Part shown: positions 1,293-64,000 of the stretch, piece after piece | How positions within the stretch are numbered: the first letter of the stretch is position 1 | Layout of the letters: every line of letters starts with the position of its first letter | DNA from: an uncultured Elusimicrobia bacterium | GTDB lineage: Bacteria > Elusimicrobiota > Endomicrobiia > DTEH01 | Assembly (NCBI GenBank): GCA_964561135.1 | Contig: CAZLOB010000022.1 | Coordinates: forward strand, 5,718-69,717 | DNA length: 64,000 nt | Direction: 5' to 3' | Program-made: the position numbers and the translations under genes | Notes under the pieces: model-generated | Told to the model about the DNA's origin: nothing | Seen by the model: the letters and a program-made list of their open reading frames with translations, nothing else | Database searches by the model: none

Positions 1293-1395
1293 TTAATAGT
1301 TAAAGTTGACAGTTGAAGGTCATTTTGTGTGCTTTGTAAGAGTTTATATAGTAGAATTTAATACTATCAATAAATATTGGGAGGTGATGCCAAAC

Positions 1396-2061: not shown

Positions 2062-2064
2062 TTT

Positions 2065-6891: not shown

Positions 6892-6900
6892 AAGGAGGGA
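6892..6900 (+). promoter_or_regulatory. Strong Shine-Dalgarno (AAAGGAGGG) for the DAHP synthase gene
   Basis: aaaggaggg sits 6 nt upstream of the ATG at 6907. Confidence 0.5.
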
Positions 6901-6906
6901 AAACAA

Positions 6907-7923
6907 ATGATATTAGTTTTAAAAAATAATATCTCAGAAGAACAATTTAATCATATAATAGAAAAAATTAAAGAGTTAGGTTTTACACCACATATATCCA
7001 GGGGTGTAAAAAAGACAATTGTTGGTTTAATTGGAGAACAAGCTGAACGTTATAGAGAAATTTTTGAATCAATAGAAGGTATTGAACATATTTCTGAAAT
7101 TGAGAACCCGTTTAAGTTAGCAAGTAGAGAATTTAAAGAAGAAGATACAATAGTAAAAGTAAATCCTGAGGTTGAGCTTGGTGGTAAAAAAATTGTTGTT
7201 ATAGCTGGACCTTGTGCTGTTGAATCTAAAGAACAATTTTTAACTATTGCGAAAGAGGTTAAGAAACACGGTGCTGTTTTGTTACGAGGAGGTATTTTTA
7301 AACCACGTACTTCACCATATTCGTTTCAAGGGTTAGGTAAAGATGGACTAAAAATTTTAAAAGAAGTAAAAGAAGAAGTTGGGTTAGGTATTGTATCTGA
7401 AGCGATGAATATTGAACAAGTTGAAATTTTAGCTGAATATGTTGATATTATACAAATTGGTGCAAGAAATGTACAAAATTTTGAGTTACTTAAAGCTGCT
7501 GGAAGAATAAAAAAACCTGTATTATTAAAACGTGGTATGGCAACAACAATCAAAGAATGGCTAATGTCAGCAGAATATATTATGGCAGAAGGAAATTATA
7601 ACGTAATACTTTGTGAACGAGGTATACGTACGTTTGAAGATTCAACAAGGTTTACTTTAGACTTAAATGCGATACCTGTAGTAAAAAGTTTATCTCATCT
7701 ACCTGTAATTGTTGATCCAAGCCATGGTATAGGAATAAGAAATTTTGTACCAACAATGGCAAAGGCTGCTATTGTAGCAGGTGCCGACGGGTTAATCATA
7801 GAAGTACATCATAATCCTGAACAAGCACTTTCTGATGGCCCACAAAGTATCTATCCGTACCAGTTTGCACAACTTATGCAAGACCTTAGAAAACTTGTGG
7901 AAGCTATCGGAAGAAGTATATAG
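6907..7923 (+). CDS. 3-deoxy-D-arabino-heptulosonate-7-phosphate (DAHP) synthase, class I-beta with an N-terminal ferredoxin-like regulatory domain (Thermotoga type)
   Basis: The 338-aa protein has an N-terminal ~65 aa with the regulatory-domain pattern. The catalytic barrel carries DAHPS/KDO8PS-family motifs: GPCAVES, LRGGIFKPRTSPYSFQG, IQIGARN, KRG and VDPSHG. Confidence 0.8.
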   Translation: MILVLKNNISEEQFNHIIEKIKELGFTPHISRGVKKTIVGLIGEQAERYREIFESIEGIEHISEIENPFKLASREFKEEDTIVKVNPEVELGGKKIVVIAGPCAVESKEQFLTIAKEVKKHGAVLLRGGIFKPRTSPYSFQGLGKDGLKILKEVKEEVGLGIVSEAMNIEQVEILAEYVDIIQIGARNVQNFELLKAAGRIKKPVLLKRGMATTIKEWLMSAEYIMAEGNYNVILCERGIRTFEDSTRFTLDLNAIPVVKSLSHLPVIVDPSHGIGIRNFVPTMAKAAIVAGADGLIIEVHHNPEQALSDGPQSIYPYQFAQLMQDLRKLVEAIGRSI

Positions 7924-7929
7924 CTACTG

Positions 7930-8802
7930 ATGCAAATAAAACAGATAAGTATAATAGGTGTAGGTCTCATTGGTGGATCAATTGGTTTAGCATTAAAAAA
8001 ATGTTTATCTTCTGTAGTTATTATTGGTGTTGGGAGGAATGTTGACAAGTTAAAAATTGCAAAAGAAAAAGGATGTATTGACAAGTTTACAACTGATATT
8101 AAAGAAGGTGTAAAAGACGCAGATATTGTCATTATTAGTGTTCCTGTTAATTTAACTATAAAATTCGTAGAGTTAGTTTTACCATATGTGAAAGAAGATG
8201 CTGTAATAACAGATGTTGCGTCAGTGAAAAATGAAATAATAAAAAAAGTAAAACAAAAGATATTAAAGGTAAAGAAAACAAAAAAAGTACATTTTGTAGG
8301 TTGTCATCCATTAGCAGGACTTGAAAAATCAGGTGTTGAATATGCAAAAGAAAACCTGTTTGAAAATTCTGTCTGCGTTATATGTTATGACAAAACAATA
8401 TGTTCTAAAGATGCTTTAAATAAAATAAAATTTTTGTGGGAAACAATGAAAGCAAATGTCGTTGATCTTGATCCACACAAACATGATAAAATTCTCGCAT
8501 TAACAAGTCATATGTTACATATTATAGCATATGTTTTAGCAAAACAAATTAATTCAAAAAAGGAATATTTAAAATTTACTGCTGGTGCGTATAGAGATAT
8601 GACACGTATCGCTGCGTCAAACCCTGAAATGTGGGCTCAAATATGTTATATGAACAGAAGTTTTGTAAAAAACGAGTTAAAAAAATTTTTAAACTTAACA
8701 AAACAAGTTCTAAACTGTTTAGACAACTACAATAAATTAAAAAAATTTTTCAGTACAGCTTACAGACTTAAACTAAAAAGTTATGAACATAAAAGTATAT
8801 AA
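7930..8802 (+). CDS. tyrA: Prephenate dehydrogenase
   Basis: The N-terminal Rossmann motif is IIGVGLIGGSIG, followed by a TyrA-like dimerisation domain with GCHPLAG. It sits between DAHP synthase and aroA. Confidence 0.75.
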   Translation: MQIKQISIIGVGLIGGSIGLALKKCLSSVVIIGVGRNVDKLKIAKEKGCIDKFTTDIKEGVKDADIVIISVPVNLTIKFVELVLPYVKEDAVITDVASVKNEIIKKVKQKILKVKKTKKVHFVGCHPLAGLEKSGVEYAKENLFENSVCVICYDKTICSKDALNKIKFLWETMKANVVDLDPHKHDKILALTSHMLHIIAYVLAKQINSKKEYLKFTAGAYRDMTRIAASNPEMWAQICYMNRSFVKNELKKFLNLTKQVLNCLDNYNKLKKFFSTAYRLKLKSYEHKSI

Positions 8803-10075
8803 GAAAGACAAAATTAAAGCAGAAATAGAAGTTCCTCCAGACAAATCTATAACACATAGAGCTATAATGTTAGCATCTATATCTTCAGGTGTATCAGAGA
8901 TACACAATTTTTTAAAAAGTAAAGATTGTTATTCTACTATTAACGCTTTTAGGTCGCTTGGAGTAAAAATTGTTGAAGAAAAAAATACATTAAAAGTTTA
9001 CGGTGTTGGTATGGAAGGATTAAAACAACCAAACGATGTTATTGACGCTGGTAACTCTGGCACTACAGTAAGGTTAATATCAGGCATTCTTGCTGGAAAC
9101 GAGATAGAAGTAAAAATTGTTGGTGATGAAAGTTTGTCAAAACGTCCAATGAAACGTATTGTAGAACCGTTATCTCTTATGGGTGCAAAAATTGTTGCTA
9201 CTGAAGGTAACTATTTGCCTATGACTATATATGGAAGCAAAAACTTAAAATCTATCACTTGGGAAAGTAAAATTGCGTCAGCACAAGTAAAATCTTGTAT
9301 TCTATTTGCAGGAATGTATGCAGAAGGTGAAACAATTTATATCGAACCACAAATATCAAGAGATCATACAGAACGTATGTTACAATACTTGGATGTAAAC
9401 ATTGAGAAAAAAGATAGGGTGTGCTCAATTAAGGGTAAAATAAAAAGAATAAAAAATTTTGAAATTGAAATACCAGGAGATCCATCTTCTGCAAGCTATT
9501 TTGTAGCAATTGGTATCTTAACAAAAGATTCTGAGATAGTTATAAGAAATGTTTGTGTAAATCCTACTCGTATGGGATTTATAAACACTTTAATAAAAAT
9601 GGGCGCAAATATAAGTTTGACAAACTTAAAAACAAAATATAATGAACCTGTTGCTGATCTTGTTGTAAAAAGTAGTAAACTAAAAGGTATAAACATATCT
9701 GCTGACGATGTACCATCAATGATTGATGAACTACCGCTGCTTGCTGTTATTGCGACACAGGCTGATGGTTTAACAGAAATACGTGGTGCACAAGAATTAA
9801 GAGTAAAAGAATCTGACAGAATCAAAACTATTACAACTGAACTACAAAAATTAGGTGCAAAAATTGTTGAACTTGAAGATGGTATGATTGTAATGGGTAA
9901 TACAAAACTTTCTTCTGAAAAAGATATTATTGAATTAGAATCTTATAAAGACCATAGGATTGCTTTAAGTTTAGCTGTAGCTGGAACTATTTGTGAAAGA
10001 AATGTAGTTATAAAAGATGCTGAGTGTGTTGATATATCTTTTCCAAACTTTTGGGAAATTTTTAATAGTTTATAA
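8783..10075 (+). CDS. aroA: 3-phosphoshikimate 1-carboxyvinyltransferase (EPSP synthase)
   Basis: EPSPS motifs include PPDKSITHRA, AGNSGTTVRL, LKESDRI and DHRIAL, in a 430-aa protein. Confidence 0.85.
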   Translation: MNIKVYKKDKIKAEIEVPPDKSITHRAIMLASISSGVSEIHNFLKSKDCYSTINAFRSLGVKIVEEKNTLKVYGVGMEGLKQPNDVIDAGNSGTTVRLISGILAGNEIEVKIVGDESLSKRPMKRIVEPLSLMGAKIVATEGNYLPMTIYGSKNLKSITWESKIASAQVKSCILFAGMYAEGETIYIEPQISRDHTERMLQYLDVNIEKKDRVCSIKGKIKRIKNFEIEIPGDPSSASYFVAIGILTKDSEIVIRNVCVNPTRMGFINTLIKMGANISLTNLKTKYNEPVADLVVKSSKLKGINISADDVPSMIDELPLLAVIATQADGLTEIRGAQELRVKESDRIKTITTELQKLGAKIVELEDGMIVMGNTKLSSEKDIIELESYKDHRIALSLAVAGTICERNVVIKDAECVDISFPNFWEIFNSL

Positions 10076-44342: not shown

Positions 44343-44419
44343 AGCGGGCGATGGGATTCGAACCCACGACCTTCTGCTTGGCAAGCAGACGTTCTTAAAC
44401 CAGGCTGAACTACGCCCGC
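44343..44419 (-). tRNA. tRNA-Gly (anticodon GCC)
   Basis: The minus-strand read GCGGGCGUAGUUCAGCCUGGUUUAAGAACGUCUGCUUGCCAAGCAGAAGGUCGUGGGUUCGAAUCCCAUCGCCCGCU folds as a cloverleaf. The anticodon loop UUGCCAA gives anticodon GCC, and the discriminator is U. CCA is not encoded. Confidence 0.9.
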
Positions 44420-47421: not shown

Positions 47422-47502
<81 letters not shown>

Positions 47503-50828: not shown

Positions 50829-50861
50829 AACTTGCAGCTTCAAAAAAGAAACTTGCAAGTT
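50829..50861 (-). terminator. Possible weak hairpin at the pgeF stop codon, which may act as a bidirectional terminator
   Basis: An 8-bp stem (AACTTGCA paired with TGCAAGTT) with a 17-nt loop sits in the convergent aroD/pgeF gap. It includes the perfect 12-bp palindrome AACTTGCAAGTT (50850-50861) and is followed by T-rich sequence on the minus-strand transcript. It is AT-rich and weak. Confidence 0.2.
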
Positions 50862-51606
50862 AAACTTTTGTAATAATGGAAAGTAAGCGGTAAGAAGTGG
50901 CATTTTTTCTAAAAGAAAAGAAAAGGTCATCATGAAAAGTACAAAAACCAGTGTTAATAATCTGCTGTTTTGAAAAACCGAAATTTAAAAGTTTTTTAAA
51001 AAGTATATCAAATAAAGAAAATTTCTCCCCATCTACATAATAACAATTCCCGCAAATATGAGGGCCTGCTATAAATAGAGTATCTTTTAAAGAAAAAGAA
51101 AGAGTATTTAGTTTCTCAAAAAGACATTCTATTATACCTTTTTGCAATCCTATTCTTCCAATATGAACAAGTCCAAACCAGCTGTTTTCTATATCCACAA
51201 CAAATAAAGGGATACAATCGGCTGTAAAAATAGCAATAATTTCTTTATTATTTTTAGAAATTATGCCATCTGTATGTAGAATTATTTTATAGTCAACCAC
51301 AAAATTTTTGAATTGTAGTTTACCAAAATAACCTTCAAAATCTGACTGATTGGTTTCTATTATTTTATTATCGTGTATTTGCTCGCACATTACCACAACT
51401 TTGTTTAAAAATATACTTGGATATTTAGTAGCAAAAGAGTACAAAGAAAGGGTTTTTTCTTTAGAAATAAAAGGGATAAAAGGAATAGACAAGTTAGCTT
51501 CTTTGGTTTCAGATATTAAATTCTTTGTTGTAGTAAGTAACAAAAAATCTTTTATTTTAAAAGATATATAATCACAATTTTCTTCATAGCTAATCATTTT
51601 CCACAA
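50860..51606 (-). CDS. pgeF: Purine nucleoside phosphorylase/laccase-domain protein PgeF (YfiH/YlmD, DUF152)
   Basis: The motifs are TADCIP and GPHICGNCY(YV). It sits downstream of ftsZ as ylmD does in Bacillus. Confidence 0.75.
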   Translation of the reverse strand: MWKMISYEENCDYISFKIKDFLLLTTTKNLISETKEANLSIPFIPFISKEKTLSLYSFATKYPSIFLNKVVVMCEQIHDNKIIETNQSDFEGYFGKLQFKNFVVDYKIILHTDGIISKNNKEIIAIFTADCIPLFVVDIENSWFGLVHIGRIGLQKGIIECLFEKLNTLSFSLKDTLFIAGPHICGNCYYVDGEKFSLFDILFKKLLNFGFSKQQIINTGFCTFHDDLFFSFRKNATSYRLLSIITKV

Positions 51607-51613
51607 ATTCTTC

Positions 51614-52735
51614 TTAAAAACGTTCTATTATATGAGATGGCCCTCCTCCTGATTCTATACCTTTTATTGCTAACATAAGTTCCTCTGGACTTGAAGCTGC
51701 TTGTAACGCATCTTCTAACGATACTAATCCTTTTTTGAATAATTCTAACAATGCTTGGTTAAATGTTTGCATACCGTAAATTTTTCCTTGTTTCATCAAG
51801 TTTATAATATCACCCAAATTTTTTTCTTCTATACATTTTTTAACAGCTGGAGTAACTACCAAAACTTCTACTGCAGGAATTAACCCTTTTTTATCTTTTC
51901 TTGGTAGCAATCTTTGAGAAATAATACCTTTTAAAGTATCGGCAAGTTGTAAACGTACTTGGTTCTGTTGGTGTGGTGGAAATATATCTATTATTCTATT
52001 TATTGTTTGAACTGCATCAACAGTGTGAACTGTTGAAAGAACAAGATGGCCAAGTTGTGCTGCAGTAAGTGCAGCTTGCATTGTTTCAAGATCTCTCATC
52101 TCTCCAATTAAAATTACATCCGGATTTTGTCTAACAACATGTCTTAATGCTGAAACAAAAGATGTTGTATCATAAGGCACTTCTCTTTGTGATATAATCG
52201 ACTTTTTATCTTTATATACAAACTCTATAGGATCCTCAATCGTTATAATATGTGCAGGACGTGTAGAATTGATATAATCGATCATACATGCAAGTGTTGT
52301 TGATTTTCCTGAGCCTGCAGGCCCTGTAACAAGAATAAACCCACGGACATTCTCTGCAAGTTTATAAACGACTTCCGGCAAATTTAGTTCTTCTCTATTT
52401 GGTATTTGGAAAGGTATACGTCTTATAGCTATATTTATTACACCACGTTGATAAAATATATTCATTCTTAAACGAGCAATATTCTCAAAATTGTATCCTA
52501 TATCACACTCTTTCTCTAATTCAAACCTTTTTTGTTGTTGTGGCGTAGTTATATAAAGAACAAAATTTTCAATATCTTCTTTAGAAAGTATAAATTGTTG
52601 ATCTTCAATTGGCTGTAATATTCCATTTATTCTAACATATGGTACACATTCACTTCTTAAATGTAGATCGCTAGCATTAGTTTCCAAAAATTTTCTTATT
52701 ATATTAAATATTTTTTCAATATTTTTATCACTCAT
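51614..52735 (-). CDS. pilT: Type IV pilus retraction ATPase PilT (twitching motility protein)
   Basis: Walker A is GPAGSGKST. The PilT-type Asp box, Walker B and His box are present with the AIRNLIRE-like region (ALTAAQLGHLVLSTVHT). Length is 373 aa. Confidence 0.85.
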   Translation of the reverse strand: MSDKNIEKIFNIIRKFLETNASDLHLRSECVPYVRINGILQPIEDQQFILSKEDIENFVLYITTPQQQKRFELEKECDIGYNFENIARLRMNIFYQRGVINIAIRRIPFQIPNREELNLPEVVYKLAENVRGFILVTGPAGSGKSTTLACMIDYINSTRPAHIITIEDPIEFVYKDKKSIISQREVPYDTTSFVSALRHVVRQNPDVILIGEMRDLETMQAALTAAQLGHLVLSTVHTVDAVQTINRIIDIFPPHQQNQVRLQLADTLKGIISQRLLPRKDKKGLIPAVEVLVVTPAVKKCIEEKNLGDIINLMKQGKIYGMQTFNQALLELFKKGLVSLEDALQAASSPEELMLAIKGIESGGGPSHIIERF

Positions 52736-52738
52736 AAA

Positions 52739-53851
52739 CTACCTCAACACACGTAATTTACCAGTTCTAAAAAACTTTTGTTGGATTTCTTTTTCTTCTA
52801 AAATAGCATCTTCTTTATCTACAACTATTTCGGTTTTGGTACGTAACGATCTTAATGTTTTTTTAGATTTTGTTTTTTCAACCATTTGGAACCCACTTGC
52901 GATAATCGTAACTTCAACTTTATCTTCAAAATCATTAGAATTTACATATCCTATATAAGTCACGACTTCTTTATCCATATAATGTTGTAAATATTCAAAC
53001 GCATTATAAACATCGTGCCCTGTTATATTTTTCCCACAAATATTTACTAACAAATTTTTTGCACTACGAATATCAAATTCTATAAATGGATTATTCATAG
53101 CATTTTTTATTGCTTTTTTTAAACAGCTTTCAGCACTTGCTTTTTCTACACCATACGACATAATTATCTGGCCTGCATTTTTTAATACATTTCTTGCATC
53201 AGCATAATCAACATTGACATACCCTGGTTGTGTCACAACTTTCCACATACTTAACACCGCTTTGTGTAAAACATCATCTGCTAATCTATATAAAACTTCA
53301 CCAAAACTTAAATTAGGATACATTTCTAAAAATTTATTGTTTGGTATAGTCAATAAAGCATCAACATATTTTTTTAATTCTGTGATTCCTGTAATTGCAT
53401 TATCCATTCTTATTTTTCCTTCGAAGTCGAAAGGTTTTGTTACAACAGCCACTGTTAAAACACCCAATTCTTTAGCCACTCTTGCAATAACAGGTGTTGC
53501 ACCAGTCCCCGTCCCTTTCCCCATACCACAGGTTAAAAACACCATATCTGTATGTGTCAATAAGTCACGAATTATATCTATTGATTCTTCCGCAGCCTGT
53601 TTCCCAACAAGCGGATCTCCTCCAGACCCTTGTCCTTTTGTAGTTTTTGGACCTATATGTATAACAATTGGCGCTTTTGACTCTTTTAAAGCTTGCAGAT
53701 CTGTGTTGATAGCGATCATTTCTACAGAAGGATCAATAAGACCAGCAGTAGCGATTCTATTTATAGCGTTCCCTCCTGCACCACCAATCCCCATTATTTT
53801 TATTCTTACAGGATATTTTTTTGTAACAATATTGTCATCCATAGAAATCAC
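52739..53851 (-). CDS. ftsZ: Cell division protein FtsZ
   Basis: The tubulin signature GGGTGTG and GIGGAGGNA are present. Length is 370 aa. Confidence 0.9.
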   Translation of the reverse strand: MISMDDNIVTKKYPVRIKIMGIGGAGGNAINRIATAGLIDPSVEMIAINTDLQALKESKAPIVIHIGPKTTKGQGSGGDPLVGKQAAEESIDIIRDLLTHTDMVFLTCGMGKGTGTGATPVIARVAKELGVLTVAVVTKPFDFEGKIRMDNAITGITELKKYVDALLTIPNNKFLEMYPNLSFGEVLYRLADDVLHKAVLSMWKVVTQPGYVNVDYADARNVLKNAGQIIMSYGVEKASAESCLKKAIKNAMNNPFIEFDIRSAKNLLVNICGKNITGHDVYNAFEYLQHYMDKEVVTYIGYVNSNDFEDKVEVTIIASGFQMVEKTKSKKTLRSLRTKTEIVVDKEDAILEEKEIQQKFFRTGKLRVLR

Positions 53852-55143
53852 TCCCCAAAAAAACTCCAGATTTTACGAAAGAAACCTTTTATCCCTTTTG
53901 ACTGTTTTTTCCCTTTAAAAGGTTTTTTTTGACTTTCTATTTCGTATTTTATCAAACTTATTGAAGTAGTATAAGAAAAATTAGAAATAATATCTTCATC
54001 TCCCACAATAGAACTCTCCATACCTACATTTCCTGCACGAACATCAATACTTTCTTCAAGATCACTATATTCACTTTTTAACAACTCACGTAACGCGTCA
54101 GTAATACCCACCAAATTTCCCCCACCACCTGCTAAAACAACATCTCCATACTGTAGTGCTAACTCAACATAATGAATTTTTTTCAACTCGGGGATAACAA
54201 TGTCTAAAAAAATCTTTTCAATAACTTCAGCAATAATTTTTGCTATTTCTTTTTTTGTTGTAGTTCTAATATTTTTACCATCTCTGGATGGTATCTCAAC
54301 TTGTTCATCTTTTTTCACTGATGACGGTTGTGCAACACCATAACGACGTTTTATATTCTCTGCTACATTCCAAGATGTTTTATAATAAGCTGCAATTTCT
54401 CTCGTTATAAGGTCCGCTCCTAAATCAATATCTTTACTTTGAAACTCTCTACAATATCTTATGCATCCACCTAAATATACCACAGTCCCTATTGATTGTC
54501 CACCAAAATCTATTACTAAACAACCTAAATTACGTTCTTCAGCTTCCGTAACCAACTGTGCTAAAGAAATTAAACCATAATGTAAATTATCAATTACATA
54601 ACCAGCTTCCGTAAAAGTTCGTTCTATGTTCCTTATAAAACTTGAATATCCAACAATTGCATAAGCTTTTACTTCTAGAATACTTCCTTCCATATTAACA
54701 GGATTTGAAATTCCAGGTTGACCATCGATAATATACTCTTGAGGTATAATATTCATTATTAAACGATCATTCGAAATTCTTAAATTTTTTACTGCATGTT
54801 CAATAACTTTTTCTTGATCTTCAAAAGTAATTGTTCGATCAGTTGAGGTAATAGGAATTTGTGCTGAAGTTTCATAAGTACTTACAAACGGCCCTCTCAC
54901 ACCAACAATAAGTTTTGTCCTTTCAACTTTTGCCATATCTTCTAATGATGAAATCAACTCGTTTATAAGAGCAGCACTTCTCTCAATATCTTTAATTACA
55001 CCTGCAGAAATTGCTTCTTTATCGACTAACTGTTTACCTGCAATAATTTCTATAATTTCTTGTTCAGGATCGTACTTTCCTAAAACACCTGTAACACAAC
55101 CTGAACCTATATCAACCCCACAATAAATTTCTTCTTTTGGCAT
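53848..55143 (-). CDS. ftsA: Cell division protein FtsA
   Basis: It is actin-like, with the phosphate-1 motif GVDIGS, VIDFGGQS and the adenosine motif LAGGGG. It overlaps the ftsZ start. Confidence 0.85.
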   Translation of the reverse strand: MPKEEIYCGVDIGSGCVTGVLGKYDPEQEIIEIIAGKQLVDKEAISAGVIKDIERSAALINELISSLEDMAKVERTKLIVGVRGPFVSTYETSAQIPITSTDRTITFEDQEKVIEHAVKNLRISNDRLIMNIIPQEYIIDGQPGISNPVNMEGSILEVKAYAIVGYSSFIRNIERTFTEAGYVIDNLHYGLISLAQLVTEAEERNLGCLVIDFGGQSIGTVVYLGGCIRYCREFQSKDIDLGADLITREIAAYYKTSWNVAENIKRRYGVAQPSSVKKDEQVEIPSRDGKNIRTTTKKEIAKIIAEVIEKIFLDIVIPELKKIHYVELALQYGDVVLAGGGGNLVGITDALRELLKSEYSDLEESIDVRAGNVGMESSIVGDEDIISNFSYTTSISLIKYEIESQKKPFKGKKQSKGIKGFFRKIWSFFGE

Positions 55144-55199
55144 TTTTATTCTCCAAAAAAGAAATTATTTAAAATTTTTAAATATAAAATTATTAAGTT

Positions 55200-55970
55200 T
55201 TATTCAATATATGCCTTTCCATAGGATAATAACTGTGTATAAATTCTTGTGTTTTTATCAAATTTATATTTTATCAATTTAGATAGCATCTCTTTTTTTA
55301 CATTCTCAAATTTTTTGTCAACAATAAAATAAAGAATACAATTATCTTCCTCTCCACGGACACAAACAACATATTTATTGTTTTCTTTTCTAATTTTTTC
55401 AACTTTATCCCAAACATTAGCTTCACTAAATTTTTGATAGATAATCTTTAATGTTGGAATATCCACTTCGCCTTCTATATATGGCAGTTTAGCTAAATTA
55501 ATTTTTCTAGCATCATAAACTTTATACCATTTTATATCACTGGACAGAAACAAAATTCCATCATCAATTCCCTTTTTGTAACCTATTGGAGAAAAAGTAT
55601 GAATTTTAATTTTTAAAGGTTTTGTTGGAAAAAACATAATTTTTATCTCTTTAATTTCAGGAAAAACTTTTTGTAGTTTAAGAATATTTTTTTTATAATT
55701 AAAAACATCAAGATGTTCCGCATTTAGTTGTTTATAAATAATTTCGTCTGGTACTGTTGATTTGTTCTCGCATAAGTATACTTTTTGTATTTTAAAAACT
55801 TCATACTTAAAAACTTCATACAAAGATTTAACTTTACTTATTTTATAAACAACAAAAATCAAAATTGTTAAACAAGCTGTAGCCAATAAAAATCTGAAAA
55901 CAATTTTAAATTTTTTCTTTTTCTTATTTTTTTTCTTTACCAAAATGTTGAATGAATAATATCTACTCAT
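55200..55970 (-). CDS. ftsQ: FtsQ/DivIB-like cell division protein (single TM + POTRA-like)
   Basis: A K-rich cytoplasmic N-terminus, one TM helix and a periplasmic domain fit FtsQ. The position between ddl and ftsA is the canonical FtsQ position. Confidence 0.5.
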   Translation of the reverse strand: MSRYYSFNILVKKKNKKKKKFKIVFRFLLATACLTILIFVVYKISKVKSLYEVFKYEVFKIQKVYLCENKSTVPDEIIYKQLNAEHLDVFNYKKNILKLQKVFPEIKEIKIMFFPTKPLKIKIHTFSPIGYKKGIDDGILFLSSDIKWYKVYDARKINLAKLPYIEGEVDIPTLKIIYQKFSEANVWDKVEKIRKENNKYVVCVRGEEDNCILYFIVDKKFENVKKEMLSKLIKYKFDKNTRIYTQLLSYGKAYIE

Positions 55971-56925
55971 ATTTTTTAAATGACACGAAGACTATTTTTC
56001 TTACAAGCTCAGCAAAAGATATACCTTGATACTTAGCAGCTTCAGGCAATAAAGATGTCTCAGTCATACCAGGGACAGTGTTTACTTCTAACACATATGG
56101 TATTTTTTTTCTTTCATCAAAAATAGTATCTACTCTGCACAAAATTTCACACCCTATTAATTTTGCAGTTTTCAAAGCAATATTTTTAATTTTTTCATAT
56201 GAAATTTTATCAATTCTTGGTGGTATTAAATGTTGTGATCCCCCAGGCTGATATTTTGATTTATAGTCATAAAATCTGTTTAACTTTGGGATGATTTCTA
56301 TCAAAGGTAAAACTTCACCATCTAAAATAGGGACAGTTATTTCTTTTCCATTTATAAATTTTTCTATAATAATAACATTATCATACTTTAACGCATTTTT
56401 TACTGCAGGAATTAAATTTTTGTAATTATTCACGATAGAAGTGCCAATAGTTGAACCCTCACGTGCAGGTTTCACTACTAATGGAAAACCAAAATTTTTT
56501 TCTTTAACGAAATAAAAATTTTTTTCATCAATATCTTTTTTAATTTTAGAAAAGTTTAATACTTTAAAATCAGGTGTGGGTATTCCGTTATCTTTTAATA
56601 AAAGTTTTGTAAGATATTTATTCATTCCTATCATTGACGCTTCAACACCACAACCAGTATATTTAAGCCCTATATTCTCAAGTAACATTTGCAATTTACC
56701 ATCTTCACCAAATTTTCCATGTAATGCTATAAAAATAATATCGACTTTTTTCTTTTTTAATTTAAGTAATTGATTTACACAATGTTCTTTTTTAATATCA
56801 ATTAAAGAAACTTTAAAATCCTGCCATTTAGATAAGTTGTTAAACACAGCTTTACCAGTTTTCAAACTTATTTCTCGTTCAGAAGAGAAGCCACCACACA
56901 GTACCGCTATTTTGATCTTCCTCAT
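55963..56925 (-). CDS. ddl: D-alanine--D-alanine ligase
   Basis: This is an ATP-grasp enzyme with the Ddl N-terminus (IAVLCGGFSSEREISL, ALHGKFGEDG) and a C-terminal CRVDTIFDERKKIPYVLEVNTVPGMT. Confidence 0.85.
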   Translation of the reverse strand: MRKIKIAVLCGGFSSEREISLKTGKAVFNNLSKWQDFKVSLIDIKKEHCVNQLLKLKKKKVDIIFIALHGKFGEDGKLQMLLENIGLKYTGCGVEASMIGMNKYLTKLLLKDNGIPTPDFKVLNFSKIKKDIDEKNFYFVKEKNFGFPLVVKPAREGSTIGTSIVNNYKNLIPAVKNALKYDNVIIIEKFINGKEITVPILDGEVLPLIEIIPKLNRFYDYKSKYQPGGSQHLIPPRIDKISYEKIKNIALKTAKLIGCEILCRVDTIFDERKKIPYVLEVNTVPGMTETSLLPEAAKYQGISFAELVRKIVFVSFKKYE

Positions 56926-57854
56926 TATAACTCTACCCCAACAAAAGTTATTTCAGGCTGAAGTTCAATTTTATATTTTTCTTTCACAACTTTGATAATA
57001 TGCCGGATAAGATTTACAAAATCTTCACAAGTAGCATTATTTTTGTTTATAATAAAATTTGCATGTTTTTCTGAAACACAAGCCCCACCAATTGAAAAAC
57101 CTTTTAGTCCAGCAGATTCTATTAACTTTGCAGCAGTAAGTTCTGTTTCATATGGATTTTTAAAGATACAGCCAGCGTTAAAAGTACCTAAAGGTTGTGT
57201 CTGTATACGTTGAAGTAAAGCTTCGTTAAGCCGTTTTTTAATTAATTCTTTATCTTCTTTTTTAAGGCGAAAATGAGCAGATACAACTACATACTTGTTT
57301 TGTAACCCACTATTTCTGTATCCAAAATCTATCTGTTCTTTATACAATTTTATTATTCCTTGTTCAGGATCATCAATTTTAACAACTTCAATATATTCTA
57401 AACAATCAGATATTGTAGCTGTTTTTGTTCCAGCATTCATTATTATAGCGCCACCAACACTACCCGGTATTCCAAAAAGTTCTTCTAATCCAGATAAAGA
57501 ATGTTCTACAGTTGTATTTATCAATGAAGGTAACATCGTGGCTGAATATGCAATAACTTTTTCTTCTTCTATATTTACTGTAGAAAAATCTTTCTTTAGT
57601 TTAATTACAACACCATCAAAACCTTTGTCAGAAACTAACAAGTTTGACCCTGCACCAATGACAAAAATTTTTTCGTTATAAAATTTTATTATGGATAAAA
57701 CATCAATAAGTTGCGATATATTTTCTACATAGACAAAATATTTCGCAGGACCACCTATGTTTAATGTTGTGTGTTTATTTAACTTTTCATTAAGAACTAC
57801 ATTAATATTATGTTTTTTAAATGTTGTTATTATCTTATCTCCCATAATATTCAA
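56925..57854 (-). CDS. murB: UDP-N-acetylenolpyruvoylglucosamine reductase
   Basis: The FAD-binding PCMH domain (TTLNIGGPA, GAGSNLL) precedes a MurB C-terminal domain. Confidence 0.8.
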   Translation of the reverse strand: MNIMGDKIITTFKKHNINVVLNEKLNKHTTLNIGGPAKYFVYVENISQLIDVLSIIKFYNEKIFVIGAGSNLLVSDKGFDGVVIKLKKDFSTVNIEEEKVIAYSATMLPSLINTTVEHSLSGLEELFGIPGSVGGAIIMNAGTKTATISDCLEYIEVVKIDDPEQGIIKLYKEQIDFGYRNSGLQNKYVVVSAHFRLKKEDKELIKKRLNEALLQRIQTQPLGTFNAGCIFKNPYETELTAAKLIESAGLKGFSIGGACVSEKHANFIINKNNATCEDFVNLIRHIIKVVKEKYKIELQPEITFVGVEL

Positions 57855-59223
57855 TTAATTTATCTGCAATTTTGTATACATCACCTGCACCTAAAGTTAA
57901 AACAACGCTATCTTCAGCTAAATTTTTTAGATAGTTTACCAATCTGTCAAAATTATACATTTCAACATTATAACCATTTTTTACAAACTCGTCATATACT
58001 AATTTTATATTCACTCCTTCTATTGGTTTTTCATTAGCAGGATATATTTGTACAAGGAAAACTTTATCTTTATGTGAAAAAGCTTTCGGAAATTCTTTAT
58101 AAAGAAGTTGTGTACGTGTGTATCTATGTGGTTGGAAAACAACAACTATTTTTTTATTATTTGTTTTTATTCTTAATGTTTGAAGAGTATAATAAATTTC
58201 GGTTGGATGATGACCATAATCATCATAAACATCAATTACCTTATCATCAATAGCTATTTGCCCTTTAAATTCAATTCTACGTTTTATACCATCAAAACTT
58301 TCCAAAGCAGATTTTATATCTGAAAAATTAAACCCGCAAACAATACCTAAAGAAATTGTTGCTAACGCGTTCAATACGTTATGAATACCAGTCGTATTTA
58401 ACAATACTTTCCCTACCAATTTGTCATTTTTATATACTACAAACCTTGAAAAATTTGGTTTTAACTCAATATTTTTTGCAACAAAGTCATTGTTTCCATT
58501 TTTTATTCCATAAGTGTAATATTTTCTTTTAATTTTAGGTAATAACGAACAAATTCTTTTATCATCTCCATAAAGAATACTAAAGCCATAAAACGGAACA
58601 GAATTGAAATGTTGTAAAAACGCTTGTTTTAGATTATTCATAGATCCATAGTTGTCTAAATGGTCATTATCTATATTTGTGCAAACAACAATATAAGGTG
58701 ACAGATGTAAAAAAGAGCCATCACTTTCATCCGCTTCAACAACAATAAATTTACCCTTTCCAATTTTTGCTGACGAACCAATGTTTTTTAATATCCCACC
58801 GACAACTATTGTGGGATCATATCCACATTGTTGTAGTAGTAATCCTATCATTGAAGTTGTTGTTGTTTTTCCATGTGTACCACAAATACTTATTGTATAT
58901 TTCATTCTTGCAATTTCTACTAACATTTCAATACGAGGAATCACAGGAATGTTTCTTTTCTTTGCAGCAACTATTTCAGGATTATTCTCTTTTATTGCCG
59001 TGGAATAAACAACAACATCTACATCATTAACATTAGTAGCTTTATGGCCAATAAAAACTTTTGCACCTAATTTTTTTAATCTCTCTATCACGACAGAATT
59101 TTTTATATCAGACCCTGAAACTTGATATCCCAAATTAAGCAAAACTTCTGCGATACTGCTCATCCCACTGCCACCAATACCAATAAGATGTACTTTTTTT
59201 ACTTTATTAAATATTTCCTCCAT
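57835..59223 (-). CDS. murC: UDP-N-acetylmuramate--L-alanine ligase
   Basis: The Mur ligase N-terminal nucleotide-binding motif is GIGGSGMSSIAE, and the P-loop is GTHGKTTT. Confidence 0.85.
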   Translation of the reverse strand: MEEIFNKVKKVHLIGIGGSGMSSIAEVLLNLGYQVSGSDIKNSVVIERLKKLGAKVFIGHKATNVNDVDVVVYSTAIKENNPEIVAAKKRNIPVIPRIEMLVEIARMKYTISICGTHGKTTTTSMIGLLLQQCGYDPTIVVGGILKNIGSSAKIGKGKFIVVEADESDGSFLHLSPYIVVCTNIDNDHLDNYGSMNNLKQAFLQHFNSVPFYGFSILYGDDKRICSLLPKIKRKYYTYGIKNGNNDFVAKNIELKPNFSRFVVYKNDKLVGKVLLNTTGIHNVLNALATISLGIVCGFNFSDIKSALESFDGIKRRIEFKGQIAIDDKVIDVYDDYGHHPTEIYYTLQTLRIKTNNKKIVVVFQPHRYTRTQLLYKEFPKAFSHKDKVFLVQIYPANEKPIEGVNIKLVYDEFVKNGYNVEMYNFDRLVNYLKNLAEDSVVLTLGAGDVYKIADKLIEYYGR

Positions 59224-59225
59224 TT

Positions 59226-59624
59226 TTATTTTGACTCTCTTTTAACTATAGTTTTAATACCACCACGAAGGTTAAACTCAAGTTCTACATACAACCATTT
59301 TGGTTTTAACAATTTATTTAAATCTTCAAAAATTTGGTTCACTGCGGACTCGTGTACAATATGTACATTGCGATAACTTTGAATGTAATACTTTAGAGAC
59401 TTTAACTCAACACATACTTTATTTGGTACATATTTTATTCTAAGTGTTGCAAAATCGGGAAGGTTATTCCATGGACATAAACATGTAAATTCTTGCGTTT
59501 CAATTTCTATTGTTATATCTTTCCCTTTATATTCGTATTCTAGTGGTATTAACAACTCTGGCGAAATTTTATCAAATTTCACTGACAAATTCTTTATTCT
59601 ATCATATAATTCTACTTTTTTCAT
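59226..59624 (-). CDS. queF: NADPH-dependent 7-cyano-7-deazaguanine (preQ0) reductase, unimodular type
   Basis: The catalytic Cys context ([16 protein letters not shown]) and the QueF motif E(L)KSLK are present. Length is 132 aa. Confidence 0.85.
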
Positions 59625-60817
59625 TAATTAAAAATTTCTGTTACAATAAATTTTAAATATTCTGTTTCATCTTTCATCGGAAAATATATAGGATGATCTT
59701 CTGATTGTGTCCCATAATATATTATAAAACCTTTTTGTTCGTTTTTCAACATAGAAGATAAAATCAACTCTTCTATATCTTCCAACGAAATGTGTCTACT
59801 GCACACAGAAAAAGCTAAAAGTCCGTTGTTTGTTAACAATTTCATAATCTGTGATAAGACAAATTTATATTTCTTTTTTGCAGGATTAACATCTTTATCA
59901 GATTTTGCATATGATGGTGGATCAAAAATTATTAAATCAAACTTTGTTTTATTCTCTTGGATGAAATCTTCAATTTTTGCGCAAACAAACTCAACTTTGA
60001 CTTTATTTATTTTAGCATTTTCTTTTGCAAGTTCTATCGCATATGAAGACGAATCTACACCAATAACATTCTTGCAACCTGATAAAGCACAAATTACACC
60101 AAATGAACCTGTATAACAGCATAAATCAAGAACATTTTTATCATTAGCGATACAAGATATATATTTTCTGTTTTCAAATTGATCATAATAAAAACCTGTT
60201 TTTTGCCCATTTAAAACATCAACAACAAATTTTGCATTCAAATGTTCAATAACAGTTATTAATTCATTAGTAATTTTATTTTTTGAATAAACAACTTCTT
60301 TATATTTTGGTGCGACTTCAAGTTCTCGTTGGTAAATATCGTTGTTTACAACAATAAATTTTGGATTAAAAATATCTATTAAACAACTAAAAATTTCGTT
60401 TTTAAACAACTCCATTGCATAAGAAAAAAACTGTATAACAAAAATATCTCCGTATCTATCTATTACTACACCCGGTAAAAAATCACTCTCTCCATAAACA
60501 ATTCTACAGTACTTTATATTTATTCCATACTTCTTTCTTCTTTCTATTGCATTCTTTATTCTTTTATAAAAAAAATCTTTATTGATTTTTTCCTCTCTTC
60601 TTTGTGAAAGAATACGAATAGAAATTAAAGAATGTGGATTATATACACCTTTACACAAAAAATTATCTTTGTGATCATATACTTCGACAAAAGAAATTTG
60701 TTTTGTTAAGTTTTTATGTTCAATTTCATTAGAAAAAATCCATAAGTATCCATTTTTAACTCTGTTTTTAAATTGTTTTGAAACTTTAATTTTTATAGGT
60801 TCAACATAATTATTCAT
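59624..60817 (-). CDS. Class I SAM-dependent rRNA (cytosine-C5) methyltransferase, RlmI/RlmK-like (PUA + MTase, COG1092)
   Basis: An N-terminal PUA-like domain precedes a Rossmann MTase with SAM motif [11 protein letters not shown] and motif IV DPPSY. Length is 397 aa. Confidence 0.65.
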
Positions 60818-61631
60818 ATACTAACCAAAATTCTGATGATGTCAAATCAATTTTGTTTTTTAGAAACTCGTATGCATTAGCTTTGTTTATTGCAACTTCA
60901 ATATATCCGATAGAATTAACGTATGCTAAAAATTCTTTTTCTTTTACATCTGCATAACATTTTTTAATTTTGGCCTTAAACATAGGTTTATTTTTATAAC
61001 AAATTGTAAGATAATATCTCTCAATTTTGTTTTTATTTAATACTTCTTCAGGTAAAGATGTAATGATATTCCCGAAACTATCACTAAAAAGATATTTTCC
61101 AACAACAATTTTTTTATTACCAAGTTTTTTTATTTCATAAGAAAAGTTTTGTAGTGTTATAATTTTTGATTTTTCAAATTTTTCACAAATTTTTTTAATA
61201 GGCACATTTTTAGATATATAAGCACCTACAGGTGAAAAAATATCCCGTCCATGGAAAGTATTACTTATTTTAGGTAAAAAAAATTTTGTGTTAACTATTT
61301 TATAAACTGAATAATTTTTTTCTTTATCTATCACTTTTGTTATTAATCCATTATTGGGTACAATAAAAACATAAAATCTTGTCTTTATCAAAAGTATTTC
61401 TCTTTCACTTCCTACTCCAGGGTCAACTACACATACAAAAATACTTCCTCTCGGAAAAAACTCATAAGATTTTGCAAGGATAACTGATGCTTGTAGAACA
61501 TTTTGTGGTGCAATATTATGACAAAGATCAATTATTTCTGCATTAGGATTTATCTTTTTAATTACTCCTTTCATTTGGCCAATATAAAAGTCGTTATTGA
61601 AATCTGTCAACAAAACAATAGGCCTTTTCAT
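60810..61631 (-). CDS. S-adenosyl-L-methionine hydroxide adenosyltransferase (DUF62 SAM hydrolase, fluorinase/chlorinase superfamily)
   Basis: The motifs are N-terminal LLTDF, VVDPGVGS and the highly conserved TFHGRDIFSPV. Length is ~273 aa. Confidence 0.75.
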   Translation of the reverse strand: MKRPIVLLTDFNNDFYIGQMKGVIKKINPNAEIIDLCHNIAPQNVLQASVILAKSYEFFPRGSIFVCVVDPGVGSEREILLIKTRFYVFIVPNNGLITKVIDKEKNYSVYKIVNTKFFLPKISNTFHGRDIFSPVGAYISKNVPIKKICEKFEKSKIITLQNFSYEIKKLGNKKIVVGKYLFSDSFGNIITSLPEEVLNKNKIERYYLTICYKNKPMFKAKIKKCYADVKEKEFLAYVNSIGYIEVAINKANAYEFLKNKIDLTSSEFWLVYE

Positions 61632-62335
61632 TTTATATAATACAAGGTCCTGTGTAACTGAGGAATTATATGTATTGATGGTACATATCTTTTTGCTTTC
61701 CTAAAAATTTCAACAAGATTAAAAAAAAGTTTTCTATTTCTTTTTTTTAATGCTGAAGTTTCCGGCTGTAATACCAAAATTTTTGGTTTTGCATTTTTTA
61801 AAAGATGACAAATTTTTTTTAATGTATTTTTTTTATACCACGCTCTCCCACAAACCACCATCTTTATAAAAAACTTCTTATTTTTATTCTTACATAAACT
61901 AATAACTTTTTCAGCTTCACGCAGTGTATTTTTTTTATTTAAATCATCATCTGGAATTTTGACATTAACTGCGCAAACATCTATAAGATCTATTATTTTT
62001 TCAAATTGGTTTAATGATGAAGCATTTGTTTCTAAATAAATTTTTACTCTACAATTTTTTATAATCTCTTTTATAAAAAACGGTAGATCTTTTTGTAGCA
62101 AAGGTTCACCACCTGTTAAACTTATAAACTCAGGTCTATATTTTTTAACATATTCCAAAACTTTTTTAACAGCAACATTTAATTCAACTTTATCCTTTGA
62201 TGAAACTTTTTTTGCATATTTTGTATCACAATAACAACAACTAAGATTACATCCTGCAAACCTTACAAACACCGTTGGGCAACCAATATAAGGACCTTCA
62301 GCTTGGTAAGAAAAGAAAATTTCTTTAATGTTCAT
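61628..62335 (-). CDS. queE: 7-carboxy-7-deazaguanine synthase (radical SAM)
   Basis: The N-terminus EIFFSYQAEGPYIGCPTVFVRFAGCNLSCCYCDTKY is a QueE-type modified CxxxCxxC cluster motif. Confidence 0.8.
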   Translation of the reverse strand: MNIKEIFFSYQAEGPYIGCPTVFVRFAGCNLSCCYCDTKYAKKVSSKDKVELNVAVKKVLEYVKKYRPEFISLTGGEPLLQKDLPFFIKEIIKNCRVKIYLETNASSLNQFEKIIDLIDVCAVNVKIPDDDLNKKNTLREAEKVISLCKNKNKKFFIKMVVCGRAWYKKNTLKKICHLLKNAKPKILVLQPETSALKKRNRKLFFNLVEIFRKAKRYVPSIHIIPQLHRTLYYIK

Positions 62336-63000
62336 TTTTTATCCAATGGATCAACAAGCCCTGCTTTTTTAAACCCCATTTTACGAAACCTGCAAGAGTC
62401 ACAACTTCCACAAGGTCTTTTTGCACCTTTATAACAACTCCATGTGTTTTGCAAAGGGACACCAAGTTTTACTGCTAATTTAACAATTTCTTCTTTTGTC
62501 AAATTGATAAGTGGAGCAACAATTTTTATTTTTTTACCACTTACACCCTTCTTTGTTCCAACATTTATCATTTTTTGGAAAGCGTCAACAAACTCTTGCC
62601 TACAGTCAGGATATCCAGAAAAATCAATTTGGTTTGCTCCAAAAAAAATGTAATTAGCATCTATTACTTCTGCCAAAGATGTTGCAAACGATAAAAATAT
62701 TATATTTCTTGCAGGAACATAAGTTAACGGGATTACATTTTTGTGTTTGCTTTTAGTCAACTTAAGTTTTTTATTAATTAACGAACTACCTTTCCAAGGT
62801 AGACCAAATTTTACAACATAGTATTTCAACCCTAAACTTTTAGCAATTTTTTTTGCACAATAAATTTCTTTTTTATGTCTTTGTCCATAGTCAAATATAA
62901 GGCACACAGGCTTATATCCTTGCTTAATTACATAATAAAGAGTGGTAGTAGAATCTAACCCGCCAGAAAGTAAAACAACACATTTTTTATTCTTCTTCAT
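62332..63000 (-). CDS. queC: 7-cyano-7-deazaguanine synthase
   Basis: The PP-loop SGGLDS (VVLLSGGLDSTT) and the C-terminal zinc-binding Cys cluster (C..CGSCDSC) are present. Confidence 0.85.
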   Translation of the reverse strand: MKKNKKCVVLLSGGLDSTTTLYYVIKQGYKPVCLIFDYGQRHKKEIYCAKKIAKSLGLKYYVVKFGLPWKGSSLINKKLKLTKSKHKNVIPLTYVPARNIIFLSFATSLAEVIDANYIFFGANQIDFSGYPDCRQEFVDAFQKMINVGTKKGVSGKKIKIVAPLINLTKEEIVKLAVKLGVPLQNTWSCYKGAKRPCGSCDSCRFRKMGFKKAGLVDPLDKK

Positions 63001-63373
63001 AACTCGCGTACTGGGTTGGTGTTTCCCACACGATAACCTTTATTTTTTGTATATTTTTATATTTTAAAAGTTTCTCTTTTAATTTTTCGTATATAAACTT
63101 TGCAATATTTTCTGCAGTTGGTTGATTATTTTTAAAAAATGGAAGGTTGTTTAAATATTTATGGTCTAACTGGTATAAAATTTTGTTCAAAACTTTTTTT
63201 AATTTCACAAAATCTATTACCATTTGTTGAGTGTTTAACTTTGTAGATGAAACGATAACCCCTACTTTCCAATTATGTCCATGTAGATTCTCACATTTAC
63301 CTTTATATAATTTCAAATGATGTGCAGCAGAAAAACTGTTTTCTACATATACTTCAAATTTATTCACTTTCAT
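62987..63373 (-). CDS. queD: 6-carboxy-5,6,7,8-tetrahydropterin synthase (PTPS-like)
   Basis: The 128-aa protein has the zinc-binding His motif (SAAHHL...HGHNW) and an E-x-P-T region (ETPTQ). Confidence 0.8.
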   Translation of the reverse strand: MKVNKFEVYVENSFSAAHHLKLYKGKCENLHGHNWKVGVIVSSTKLNTQQMVIDFVKLKKVLNKILYQLDHKYLNNLPFFKNNQPTAENIAKFIYEKLKEKLLKYKNIQKIKVIVWETPTQYASYEEE

Positions 63374-64000
63374 TCAATTTTAACTTTTTTAACATATTTT
63401 ATTTCTTGACCTAATAACAACGATCCTATTTTTTTAAAACTTTCAGGATTGTCAGAAACAAAAAATTTATATTTTGGTTTGTTATTCCTAAATTTACACA
63501 ATTTATTTTCTTCAAGAATTTTTTTAACTTCTTTTGCTGTTTCTAACGACGAATCCACAACAGTAACATTTTTACCAATTATATCTTGAATTATATTTTT
63601 TATTGCAGGATAATGAGTACAACCTAATACTAAAACATCAATACCAAAATTTTTTAAAGGTGCTAAATACTCAGCTGATAGTTGTCTTAAAATATTTTCA
63701 TGGTTTATTGTTTGATAATAGTCACTATTTATAAGTTGAAGTTTATCAATCCATCCTTCTTCTATTAAAGGGACAAACAAAGGTGTTGGTTGGCAAAAAA
63801 TTTTTGCCTTATTACAAATTTTTTTAATCGCTTTTATATATGATTTGCTTTTTATAGTTGCTTTTGTACCGATTACTCCAATTTTATAATTTTTTGTGTA
63901 TTCAACAGCAGCCCTAGCACCAGGAGTGACAACTTCTACTATTTTGAGATTTTTAAACATTTTTTTTAACATTGGGATAGCATATGATGATGAAGTATTA
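63370..64000 (-). CDS. murI: Glutamate racemase (C-terminal ~2/3; N-terminal coding part lies beyond the window end)
   Basis: The second catalytic Cys motif LGCTHYP and the IGVIGT-like region are present. The frame remains open to position 64000, so the true start is off-window. Confidence 0.7.
   Translation of the reverse strand, partial: NTSSSYAIPMLKKMFKNLKIVEVVTPGARAAVEYTKNYKIGVIGTKATIKSKSYIKAIKKICNKAKIFCQPTPLFVPLIEEGWIDKLQLINSDYYQTINHENILRQLSAEYLAPLKNFGIDVLVLGCTHYPAIKNIIQDIIGKNVTVVDSSLETAKEVKKILEENKLCKFRNNKPKYKFFVSDNPESFKKIGSLLLGQEIKYVKKVKIE

Follow-up and report, generated by a model that had tools for sequence, protein, structure and literature searches.

A gene of the DUF62 family of S-adenosylmethionine (SAM) hydrolases lies among the preQ1-synthesis genes of an uncultured Elusimicrobia bacterium, in a 64,000-nt stretch of contig CAZLOB010000022.1 (positions 5,718 to 69,717; analysed as a whole and termed the window). 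Our favoured reading, held with moderate confidence, is that this gene encodes a housekeeping SAM-repair enzyme within a compact, phylum-specific synteny block, and that its position is inherited and not the mark of a dedicated queuosine step. The protein adds a member to a known enzyme family, and the synteny is previously undescribed and phylum-restricted. As the gene order is inherited and was seen only in Elusimicrobiota, the placement is weak evidence for a role in queuosine synthesis; a dedicated role of this kind is possible but unsupported. A preliminary description of the window had put the DUF62 gene and a PUA-domain methyltransferase gene between queE and queF, and the ORFs, Pfam and NCBIfam all agreed with this assignment. 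The ATGA overlap of queE with DUF62 (61628-61631) and the TFHGRDIFSP-type motif that it reported were also present, and the DUF62 ORF has exactly the coordinates that it gave.

The DUF62 protein matched both family domains, i.e. SAM_HAT_N (PF01887; E 3.9e-50, residues 5-148, 169.8 bits against a gathering threshold of 26.3) and SAM_HAT_C (PF20257; E 2.2e-16, 60.4 bits against 25.5). Its closest relatives in the PDB were 2zbu (2.5e-43), PH0463 (1e-36), MJ1651 and 22uy (3.6e-27), the last of which was deposited as an '(R)-S-adenosyl-L-methionine hydrolase'. A 15-sequence alignment combined the window protein with diverse homologues (14) from Endomicrobiia, Planctomycetota, Ignavibacteriota, Deltaproteobacteria and archaea. 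The window protein departs from none of the 41 invariant columns, among them D70, R77 and H127, which align with their counterparts in PH0463. The motifs TDF, DPGVG, TFHGRDIF and FGN were likewise kept, with residues 123-134 reading SNTFHGRDIFSP. The sole oddity was a G12N replacement (codon 12, window 61596-61598), which gives TDFN in the window alone; the other aligned homologues, Endomicrobiia included, have glycine at this otherwise nearly invariant position. By its sequence, the window protein is a canonical SAM hydrolase.

Within the family, only the hydrolase members carry the His-Arg-Asp triad, which is strictly conserved in them and activates a nucleophilic water; the fluorinase and chlorinase are devoid of it (PMC10491745). 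As the triad is kept, the window protein was assigned to the hydrolase type and not to the halogenases. The fluorinase FlA (1rqp, 5lmz) and the chlorinase SalL (2q6i) share with it a homologous fold and a chemistry of substitution at the 5'-carbon of SAM (PMC10491745) but lack the triad; the fluorinase models covered only residues 86-255, and TIGR04507 was not reached (82 bits against a cut-off of 400). The agreement with known DUF62 hydrolases (i.e. PH0463, 1wu8/2wr8; MJ1651, 2f4n; 22uy; 2zbu; and the Salinispora, Sulfolobus and Haloferax enzymes) extended to the same two domains, the triad and TFHGRDIF, with a length of 273 aa as compared to 255-273 aa and end-to-end alignments at E values of 1e-27 to 1e-43. 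The window enzyme differs from these in its origin from a mesophile-type, AT-rich member of the Elusimicrobiota, in the G12N change in TDFG, in falling below the NCBIfam equivalog cut-offs, and in being encoded in a que/mur operon, whereas their genes stand alone or next to nadM.

The DUF62 reaction yields adenosine and methionine (PMC10491745). Only the (R,S) epimer of SAM is hydrolysed by the Salinispora enzyme, according to the descriptions given in PMC10491745 and PMC12120602, and the same selectivity was reported for the Sulfolobus and Haloferax enzymes (bioRxiv 10.1101/2025.08.29.672840). In strains deleted for DUF62, the (R,S) form made up 17% of intracellular SAM in Sulfolobus, as compared to 8% with the gene intact, and ~5% in Haloferax, where it was otherwise undetectable (bioRxiv 10.1101/2025.08.29.672840), and such proteins are now named (R)-SAM hydrolases in the NCBIfam models. 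A role for the family in (R,S)-SAM removal is therefore proposed and partly supported, and is not closed. The statement in the preliminary description that the role of the family is not settled is partly outdated, since (R,S)-SAM hydrolysis and archaeal knockouts have been published, and partly holds, since PMC12120602 still disputes the matter.

The window enzyme is predicted to cleave SAM into adenosine and methionine and to be selective for the (R,S) epimer. By the mechanism established for other family members, as carried over from the conserved residues, D70, R77 and H127 would activate a water molecule, which would attack SAM at C5' and release adenosine and L-methionine. The enzyme would be a homotrimer that prefers the (R,S) epimer, as in the family. 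Its role in the cell would be removal of spontaneously formed, inactive (R,S)-SAM, with return of methionine and adenosine to metabolism. Expression would take place within a long, tightly packed, co-directional array that mixes preQ1 synthesis with cell-wall and division genes; the slot after queE would have been inherited from the gene order ancestral to the phylum, and would give co-expression with housekeeping genes.

Conservation of the arrangement was examined among relatives. An identical 15-gene order (i.e. motB-HK-amiC-murI-queD-queC-queE-DUF62-rlmI-queF-murC-murB-ddl-ftsQ-ftsA) was observed in four Endomicrobiia-like loci (L001, L003/L004, L005 and L087), whose DUF62 proteins were 73, 57, 51 and 50% identical, respectively, to the window protein. 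A metagenome contig (L093; DUF62 71% identical) had the same order from murI to murC, which is the part sampled. The queE-DUF62 linkage was present in every Endomicrobiia relative examined, and the lists of DUF62 and QueE matches suggest that still other lineages share it. Confinement of the linkage to this one genome had been named beforehand as an argument against a functional link; no such confinement was found, with queE-DUF62-rlmI-queF shared by relatives whose DUF62 proteins are 50-73% identical.

Outside the Endomicrobiia-like loci the gene content of the block varied (Table 1). murC was downstream of DUF62 in every variant, including L086, L088, L091 and L092, while queE, queF and RlmI were each missing from some variants and RlmI from these four. 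The order amiC-murI-queD-queC-queE was kept even where DUF62 was lacking (L089 and L090), with queD not found in L089. Unrelated insertions in the murI-murC interval comprised a nucleotidyltransferase gene in L088 and a HicA-like toxin gene in L089. The ancestral layout of the phylum looks like queE-NTPase_1-DUF62-queF-murC, and the window lineage looks to have lost NTPase_1 and gained the RlmI-like gene. In a neighbour-joining tree, the Endomicrobiia DUF62 proteins grouped with that of L086 in 278 of 300 bootstraps; monophyly with the L088, L091 and L092 proteins was recovered in 23 of 300, a support too low to decide whether these copies share that origin. The linkage is thus phylum-wide and old, and it behaves as one inherited arrangement and not as repeated convergence.

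Three features of the variants were observed in addition. In L088 (region 7364-9299), the DUF62 gene encodes only the N-terminal domain (172 aa), reads TFHSRDIF for TFHGRDIF and abuts murC; upstream of it, two genes have been inserted, one for an NTP_transf_2 protein and one for a 138-aa ORF. This DUF62 copy appears to be decaying beside an intact queE. A THEP1-like NTPase_1 gene (PF03266) was found upstream of DUF62 in four Elusimicrobiota loci outside the window lineage, overlapping the DUF62 start in three of them and separated from it by the two-gene insertion in L088, and the pair may be a phylum-specific two-gene module. In L091 (4445-5490), HPPK (folK) and a HIT-family hydrolase (pterin/nucleotide metabolism) take the place of queE upstream of NTPase_1-DUF62-queF.

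Several of these observations weaken the queuosine reading. murC was as constant a neighbour of DUF62 as the que genes, or more so. The murI-murC interval accepts unrelated genes, and the DUF62 gene of L088 has decayed beside an intact queE. Furthermore, the que genes themselves stand within a cell-wall and division cluster, so operon membership in compact genomes is no sign of a shared pathway.

The contexts of DUF62 outside the phylum were surveyed in two samples. Scanning with a degenerate pattern, one genome being taken for each GTDB species, provided 80 DUF62 loci, from phyla including Planctomycetota, Cyanobacteria, Chlorobiota, Chloroflexota, Acidobacteriota, Desulfobacterota, Omnitrophota, Bathyarchaeia and Thermoprotei; a further 80 loci came from metagenomes, and in 63 of these the flank on one side or the other reached 2 kb or more. 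The QueC, QueD, QueE, QueF, RlmI, MurI and MurC proteins of the window served as queries, in the genome loci against every ORF up to 8 kb from DUF62. None of the 80 genome loci had a que gene within ~4.5 kb of DUF62, and RlmI, MurI and MurC matches numbered 0/80. The metagenome sample contained one match, the Endomicrobiia-like L093, and 79 loci devoid of any of the queried genes. Adjacent que, rlmI, NTPase_1 or murC genes were accordingly absent from all 159 non-Elusimicrobiota loci. Recurrence of the DUF62-que linkage, which the preliminary description had suggested surveying, was thus seen across Elusimicrobiota and in no other phylum, and in these samples DUF62 is not a recurrent que-operon member across bacteria.

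One candidate for a second, independent linkage (L038) was rejected, as queC-queF lies 4.5 kb upstream of DUF62 with five unrelated genes between (amino-acid kinase, ThiG, response regulator, FapA and PilZ). Neither the 80 genome loci nor the window had a match to an HMM built from the Elusimicrobiota NTPase_1, and phmmer with a single query, the L086 NTPase_1, gave no match in the 80 metagenome loci. All-against-all clustering of neighbours within 5 kb gave no general partner of DUF62, i.e. none in more than 8 of 80 loci, the top clusters being a response regulator (8/80), a CNNM/CorC transporter (7) and ORFs antisense to the transporter (7). The CNNM/CorC-type (CBS-domain) transporter was within ~3 kb of DUF62 in L024, L027, L039, L048, L064, L066 and L067, which include Planctomycetota, Verrucomicrobiia and Acidobacteriota-type metagenome-assembled genomes, and was the most frequent bacterial neighbour after response regulators. 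Among 150 immediate neighbours assigned with Pfam, cytidylyltransferase-like (NadM-type) proteins came first (5), followed by GatB, LptF/G and sigma-70 (3 each), with no enrichment of radical-SAM proteins or methyltransferases. All five NadM-type genes adjoined DUF62 in archaeal loci, i.e. in 5 of 11 (L034, L045, L054, L058 and L061). Recovery of this published archaeal nadM-DUF62 synteny (PMC8305020) indicates that the survey was sensitive enough to detect a real clade-specific linkage.

The window genes form a minus-strand series, murI-queD-queC-queE-DUF62-(PUA/RlmI-like methyltransferase)-queF-murC-murB-ddl-ftsQ?-ftsA-ftsZ, established from the ORF list for 56-64 kb and the raw sequence (Table 1).

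Table 1. Genes of the window array and variant arrangements in other Elusimicrobiota loci
Locus	Feature	Position	Strand	Evidence or remark
Window	murI (glutamate racemase)	63370..63972	minus	NCBIfam glutamate racemase models, E 4.7e-41
Window	queD (6-carboxytetrahydropterin synthase)	62987..63373	minus	PF01242 7.8e-44; TIGR03367 103 bits vs cut-off 89.25
Window	queC (7-cyano-7-deazaguanine synthase)	62332..63000	minus	PF06508 1.4e-75; TIGR00364 228 bits vs cut-off 150.3
Window	queE (radical-SAM 7-carboxy-7-deazaguanine synthase)	61628..62335	minus	Radical_SAM and Fer4_12 domains
Window	DUF62 / SAM_HAT S-adenosylmethionine hydrolase (adenosine-forming)	60810..61631	minus	273-aa ORF; PF01887 and PF20257
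Window	PUA-domain class I RNA methyltransferase, RlmI/YccW/PH1915 family	59624..60817	minus	PUA_3 2.6e-18; Methyltrans_SAM 1.9e-15
Window	queF (unimodular preQ1 synthase / preQ0 reductase)	59226..59624	minus	TIGR03139 135.2 bits vs cut-off 86.9
Window	murC	57835..59223	minus	TIGR01082 503.7 bits vs cut-off 335; heads same-direction cell-wall/division genes
Window	murB	56925..57854	minus	Pfam
Window	ddl	55963..56925	minus	Pfam
Window	256-aa ORF in ftsQ position	between ddl and ftsA	minus	
Window	ftsA	53848..55143	minus	Pfam
Window	ftsZ	52739..53851	minus	Pfam
Window	PilT-like ATPase and Cu-oxidase_4 (YfiH-like) protein	beyond ftsZ, array reaching 50860	minus	
L086	murI-queD-queC-queE-NTPase_1-DUF62-queF-murC	NTPase_1-DUF62 6441-7828		no RlmI
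L088	queE-NTPase_1-(nucleotidyltransferase + 138 aa)-DUF62-murC	NTPase_1-DUF62 6719-7234 and 8781-9299		DUF62 N-terminal domain only, TFHSRDIF
L091	HPPK-HIT-NTPase_1-DUF62-queF-murC	NTPase_1-DUF62 5474-6795		no queE nearby
L092 ('Elusimicrobia bacterium')	queE-(109 aa)-NTPase_1-DUF62-murC	NTPase_1-DUF62 1115-2436		
L089, L090	amiC-murI-(queD)-queC-queE			no DUF62

All four enzymes of the preQ1 operon (queD-queC-queE-queF) are present and co-directional, placed between murI and murC within a co-directional cell-wall/division array (minus strand, 50860-63972). QueD, QueC and QueF exceeded NCBIfam cut-offs, while QueE was assigned from its radical-SAM domains, a CNLSCCYC (CX3CX2C) motif, best NCBIfam matches to QueE models (below their cut-offs) and homologues named QueE. 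The murI match starts at model position 89 of 267 (NF002035) or 85 of 251 (TIGR00067), and the 5' part of this gene probably lies outside the window end. Junctions in the array were mostly overlaps or gaps of a few bases, the largest gap being 56 nt (between the ftsQ-position ORF and ftsA). The murI stop and queD start overlap by 4 nt; the queE stop and DUF62 start share ATGA on the coding strand (plus-strand 'tcat'); the DUF62 stop and methyltransferase start overlap by 8 nt, ATGAATAA; and the methyltransferase gene and queF have one base in common.

A scan of 50.5-64 kb found no minus-strand terminator-like site, and promoter-like matches were at chance level (88 as compared to 78.6 +/- 10), so that no internal unit boundaries could be drawn. 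From the overlaps and the absence of terminators, DUF62 is inferred to share a transcript with queE and with the genes that follow, as part of a long housekeeping operon, and the overlaps suggest that it is probably also translationally coupled to them. The coupling to queE claimed by the preliminary description is accordingly borne out for the overlap, the coupling itself being deduced from such overlaps. An Rfam search of the whole window found no preQ1 riboswitch or other regulatory RNA, leaving the que genes here without a recognisable RNA regulator; it detected two tRNAs only, Gly-GCC (44343-44419) and Pro-TGG (47422-47500). QueA, which uses SAM as a ribosyl donor, was not identified in the cluster, and no salvage genes were found in the block. 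The names of homologues place the window in the Endomicrobiia, and its GC content was ~29% (range 26-33%). GC skew was positive in the plus-strand gene region (1-50 kb), except for a dip to -0.11 at 28-32 kb, and was -0.19 to -0.27 in the minus-strand gene region (52-64 kb), indicating that skew tracks the coding strand.

The methyltransferase downstream of DUF62 (397 aa) gave its best NCBIfam matches to 23S rRNA m5C methyltransferase models of the RlmI type, and matched PH1915 (8e-66) and E. coli YccW/RlmI (3c0k; 2.1e-45) in the PDB. The DPP and Cys-Ser motifs aligned ('fdpps' and 'svcs' as compared to 'ldppa' and 'scsq' in PH1915), and the predicted protein has the RlmI-type features, i.e. 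PUA and class I SAM methyltransferase domains, the DPP motif and a catalytic Cys. It fell below all NCBIfam equivalog cut-offs, the best model giving 226.5 bits against 575, so that C1962 of 23S rRNA is no more than a candidate for its RNA target. RlmI/YccW (3c0k; E. coli 23S rRNA m5C1962), PH1915 (2as0), TTHA1280 and TTHA1493 have the same PUA and class I layout and align over the full length, but the window gene differs from these in being sited in a que operon, a placement specific to one Endomicrobiia lineage.

Certain points weigh against a housekeeping enzyme in an inherited position. The start/stop overlaps are conserved among relatives. DUF62 stays beside at least one que gene through several local rearrangements (gain of RlmI or loss of NTPase_1, loss of queF, and exchange of the genes upstream), and this retention could reflect selection for co-expression. 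Epimerisation of SAM is slow at moderate temperatures, where such organisms presumably live. The NCBIfam equivalogs for '(R)-S-adenosyl-L-methionine hydrolase' were not reached (NF058624, 147.1 against 350 bits; NF053629, 145.3 against 470 bits), although these are narrow models and the miss lowers automatic naming, not family membership. Finally, PMC12120602 (2025) doubts that hydrolysis of (R,S)-SAM is the physiological role of the Salinispora enzyme.

The conserved overlaps, and a linkage to queE and/or queF that outlasts several rearrangements across Elusimicrobiota, would fit retention of DUF62 next to queE (and, in this lineage, next to the RlmI-like gene) as protection of SAM-binding enzymes from inhibitory (R,S)-SAM, an explanation that we consider unlikely. 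QueE uses SAM catalytically and does not consume it (PMC9204691), and some SAM-dependent enzymes are reported to be inhibited by (R,S)-SAM (bioRxiv 10.1101/2025.08.29.672840); with one SAM held over many turnovers, the wrong epimer would be a dead-end ligand, and a co-translated 'cleaner' would keep the local pool usable. However, the linkage was missing from the 159 loci of other phyla, in which QueE is widespread, SAM enzymes in general were not enriched beside DUF62, and a diffusible small-molecule pool requires no gene adjacency. Within Elusimicrobiota, moreover, L091 has DUF62 with no queE nearby, L089 and L090 have queC-queE with no DUF62, and in L088 the DUF62 gene is truncated beside an intact queE. 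A broader proposal is that in this phylum a SAM-hydrolase module (DUF62, ancestrally after a THEP1-like NTPase_1) was recruited as an accessory of 7-deazaguanine synthesis, either for proofreading of the SAM reused by QueE or for action on an adenosyl or deazapurine intermediate; this appears quite improbable.

The preliminary description had instead linked DUF62 to SAM turnover or adenosine recycling in a 'SAM-consuming tRNA-modification operon'. On such a reading, DUF62 would serve adenosine and methionine salvage for the operon, recycling SAM-derived material from queuosine synthesis. The products of the family, adenosine and methionine (PMC10491745), and the two SAM-binding enzymes that flank DUF62 are in keeping with such a role, which is nevertheless very doubtful. 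Its premise is weak, as QueE has no stoichiometric demand for SAM (PMC9204691) and QueA is missing from the identified genes of the cluster. The DUF62 substrate is SAM and not the by-products 5'-deoxyadenosine, S-adenosylhomocysteine or methylthioadenosine, hydrolysis of good SAM would be wasteful (PMC8305020, PMC12120602), and the block is without salvage genes. The same description had proposed that the RlmI-like protein and DUF62 act as a pair on a deazapurine-related substrate. Extended to NTPase_1 as the partner elsewhere and to other non-SAM nucleosides, this would amount to an undescribed branch of 7-deazaguanine metabolism, which we regard as extremely improbable. The position of DUF62 inside a preQ1 operon and the hint of a two-gene module in the four NTPase_1-DUF62 loci speak for it. 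Against it, the unchanged 41 invariant columns give no sign of a new substrate, the RlmI-like protein retains RNA m5C methyltransferase motifs, leaving the catalytic motifs of both proteins unaltered, and there is no constant partner, RlmI being absent from four variants and NTPase_1 from the window. Overall, the gene identities given in the preliminary description were right, whereas the role in SAM turnover or queuosine metabolism that it drew from them is weakly supported.

A parallel case is the archaeal nadM-DUF62 pair (Haloferax HVO_0782/HVO_0781), which is also lineage-restricted and strongly conserved and which prompted a guilt-by-association proposal, i.e. a NAD-related role put forward from nadM synteny in haloarchaea (PMC8305020). 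Both the partner gene and the clade differ from those of the window. Since unrelated pathways are suggested by the two syntenies, it can be argued that the function of the enzyme is defined by neither. If the que linkage were functional, it would provide a concrete client pathway for a debated family, and proofreading of cofactor stereochemistry would for the first time be tied to a radical-SAM enzyme. On present evidence, the finding serves mainly as a caution: the neighbours of DUF62 are clade-specific (nadM in archaea; que, NTPase_1 and murC in Elusimicrobiota) and differ between clades, so that for this family the gene neighbourhood in one compact genome is not a reliable guide to function. 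The most original observation to emerge is the NTPase_1-DUF62 pair of other Elusimicrobiota, which constitutes a small, new and testable lead.

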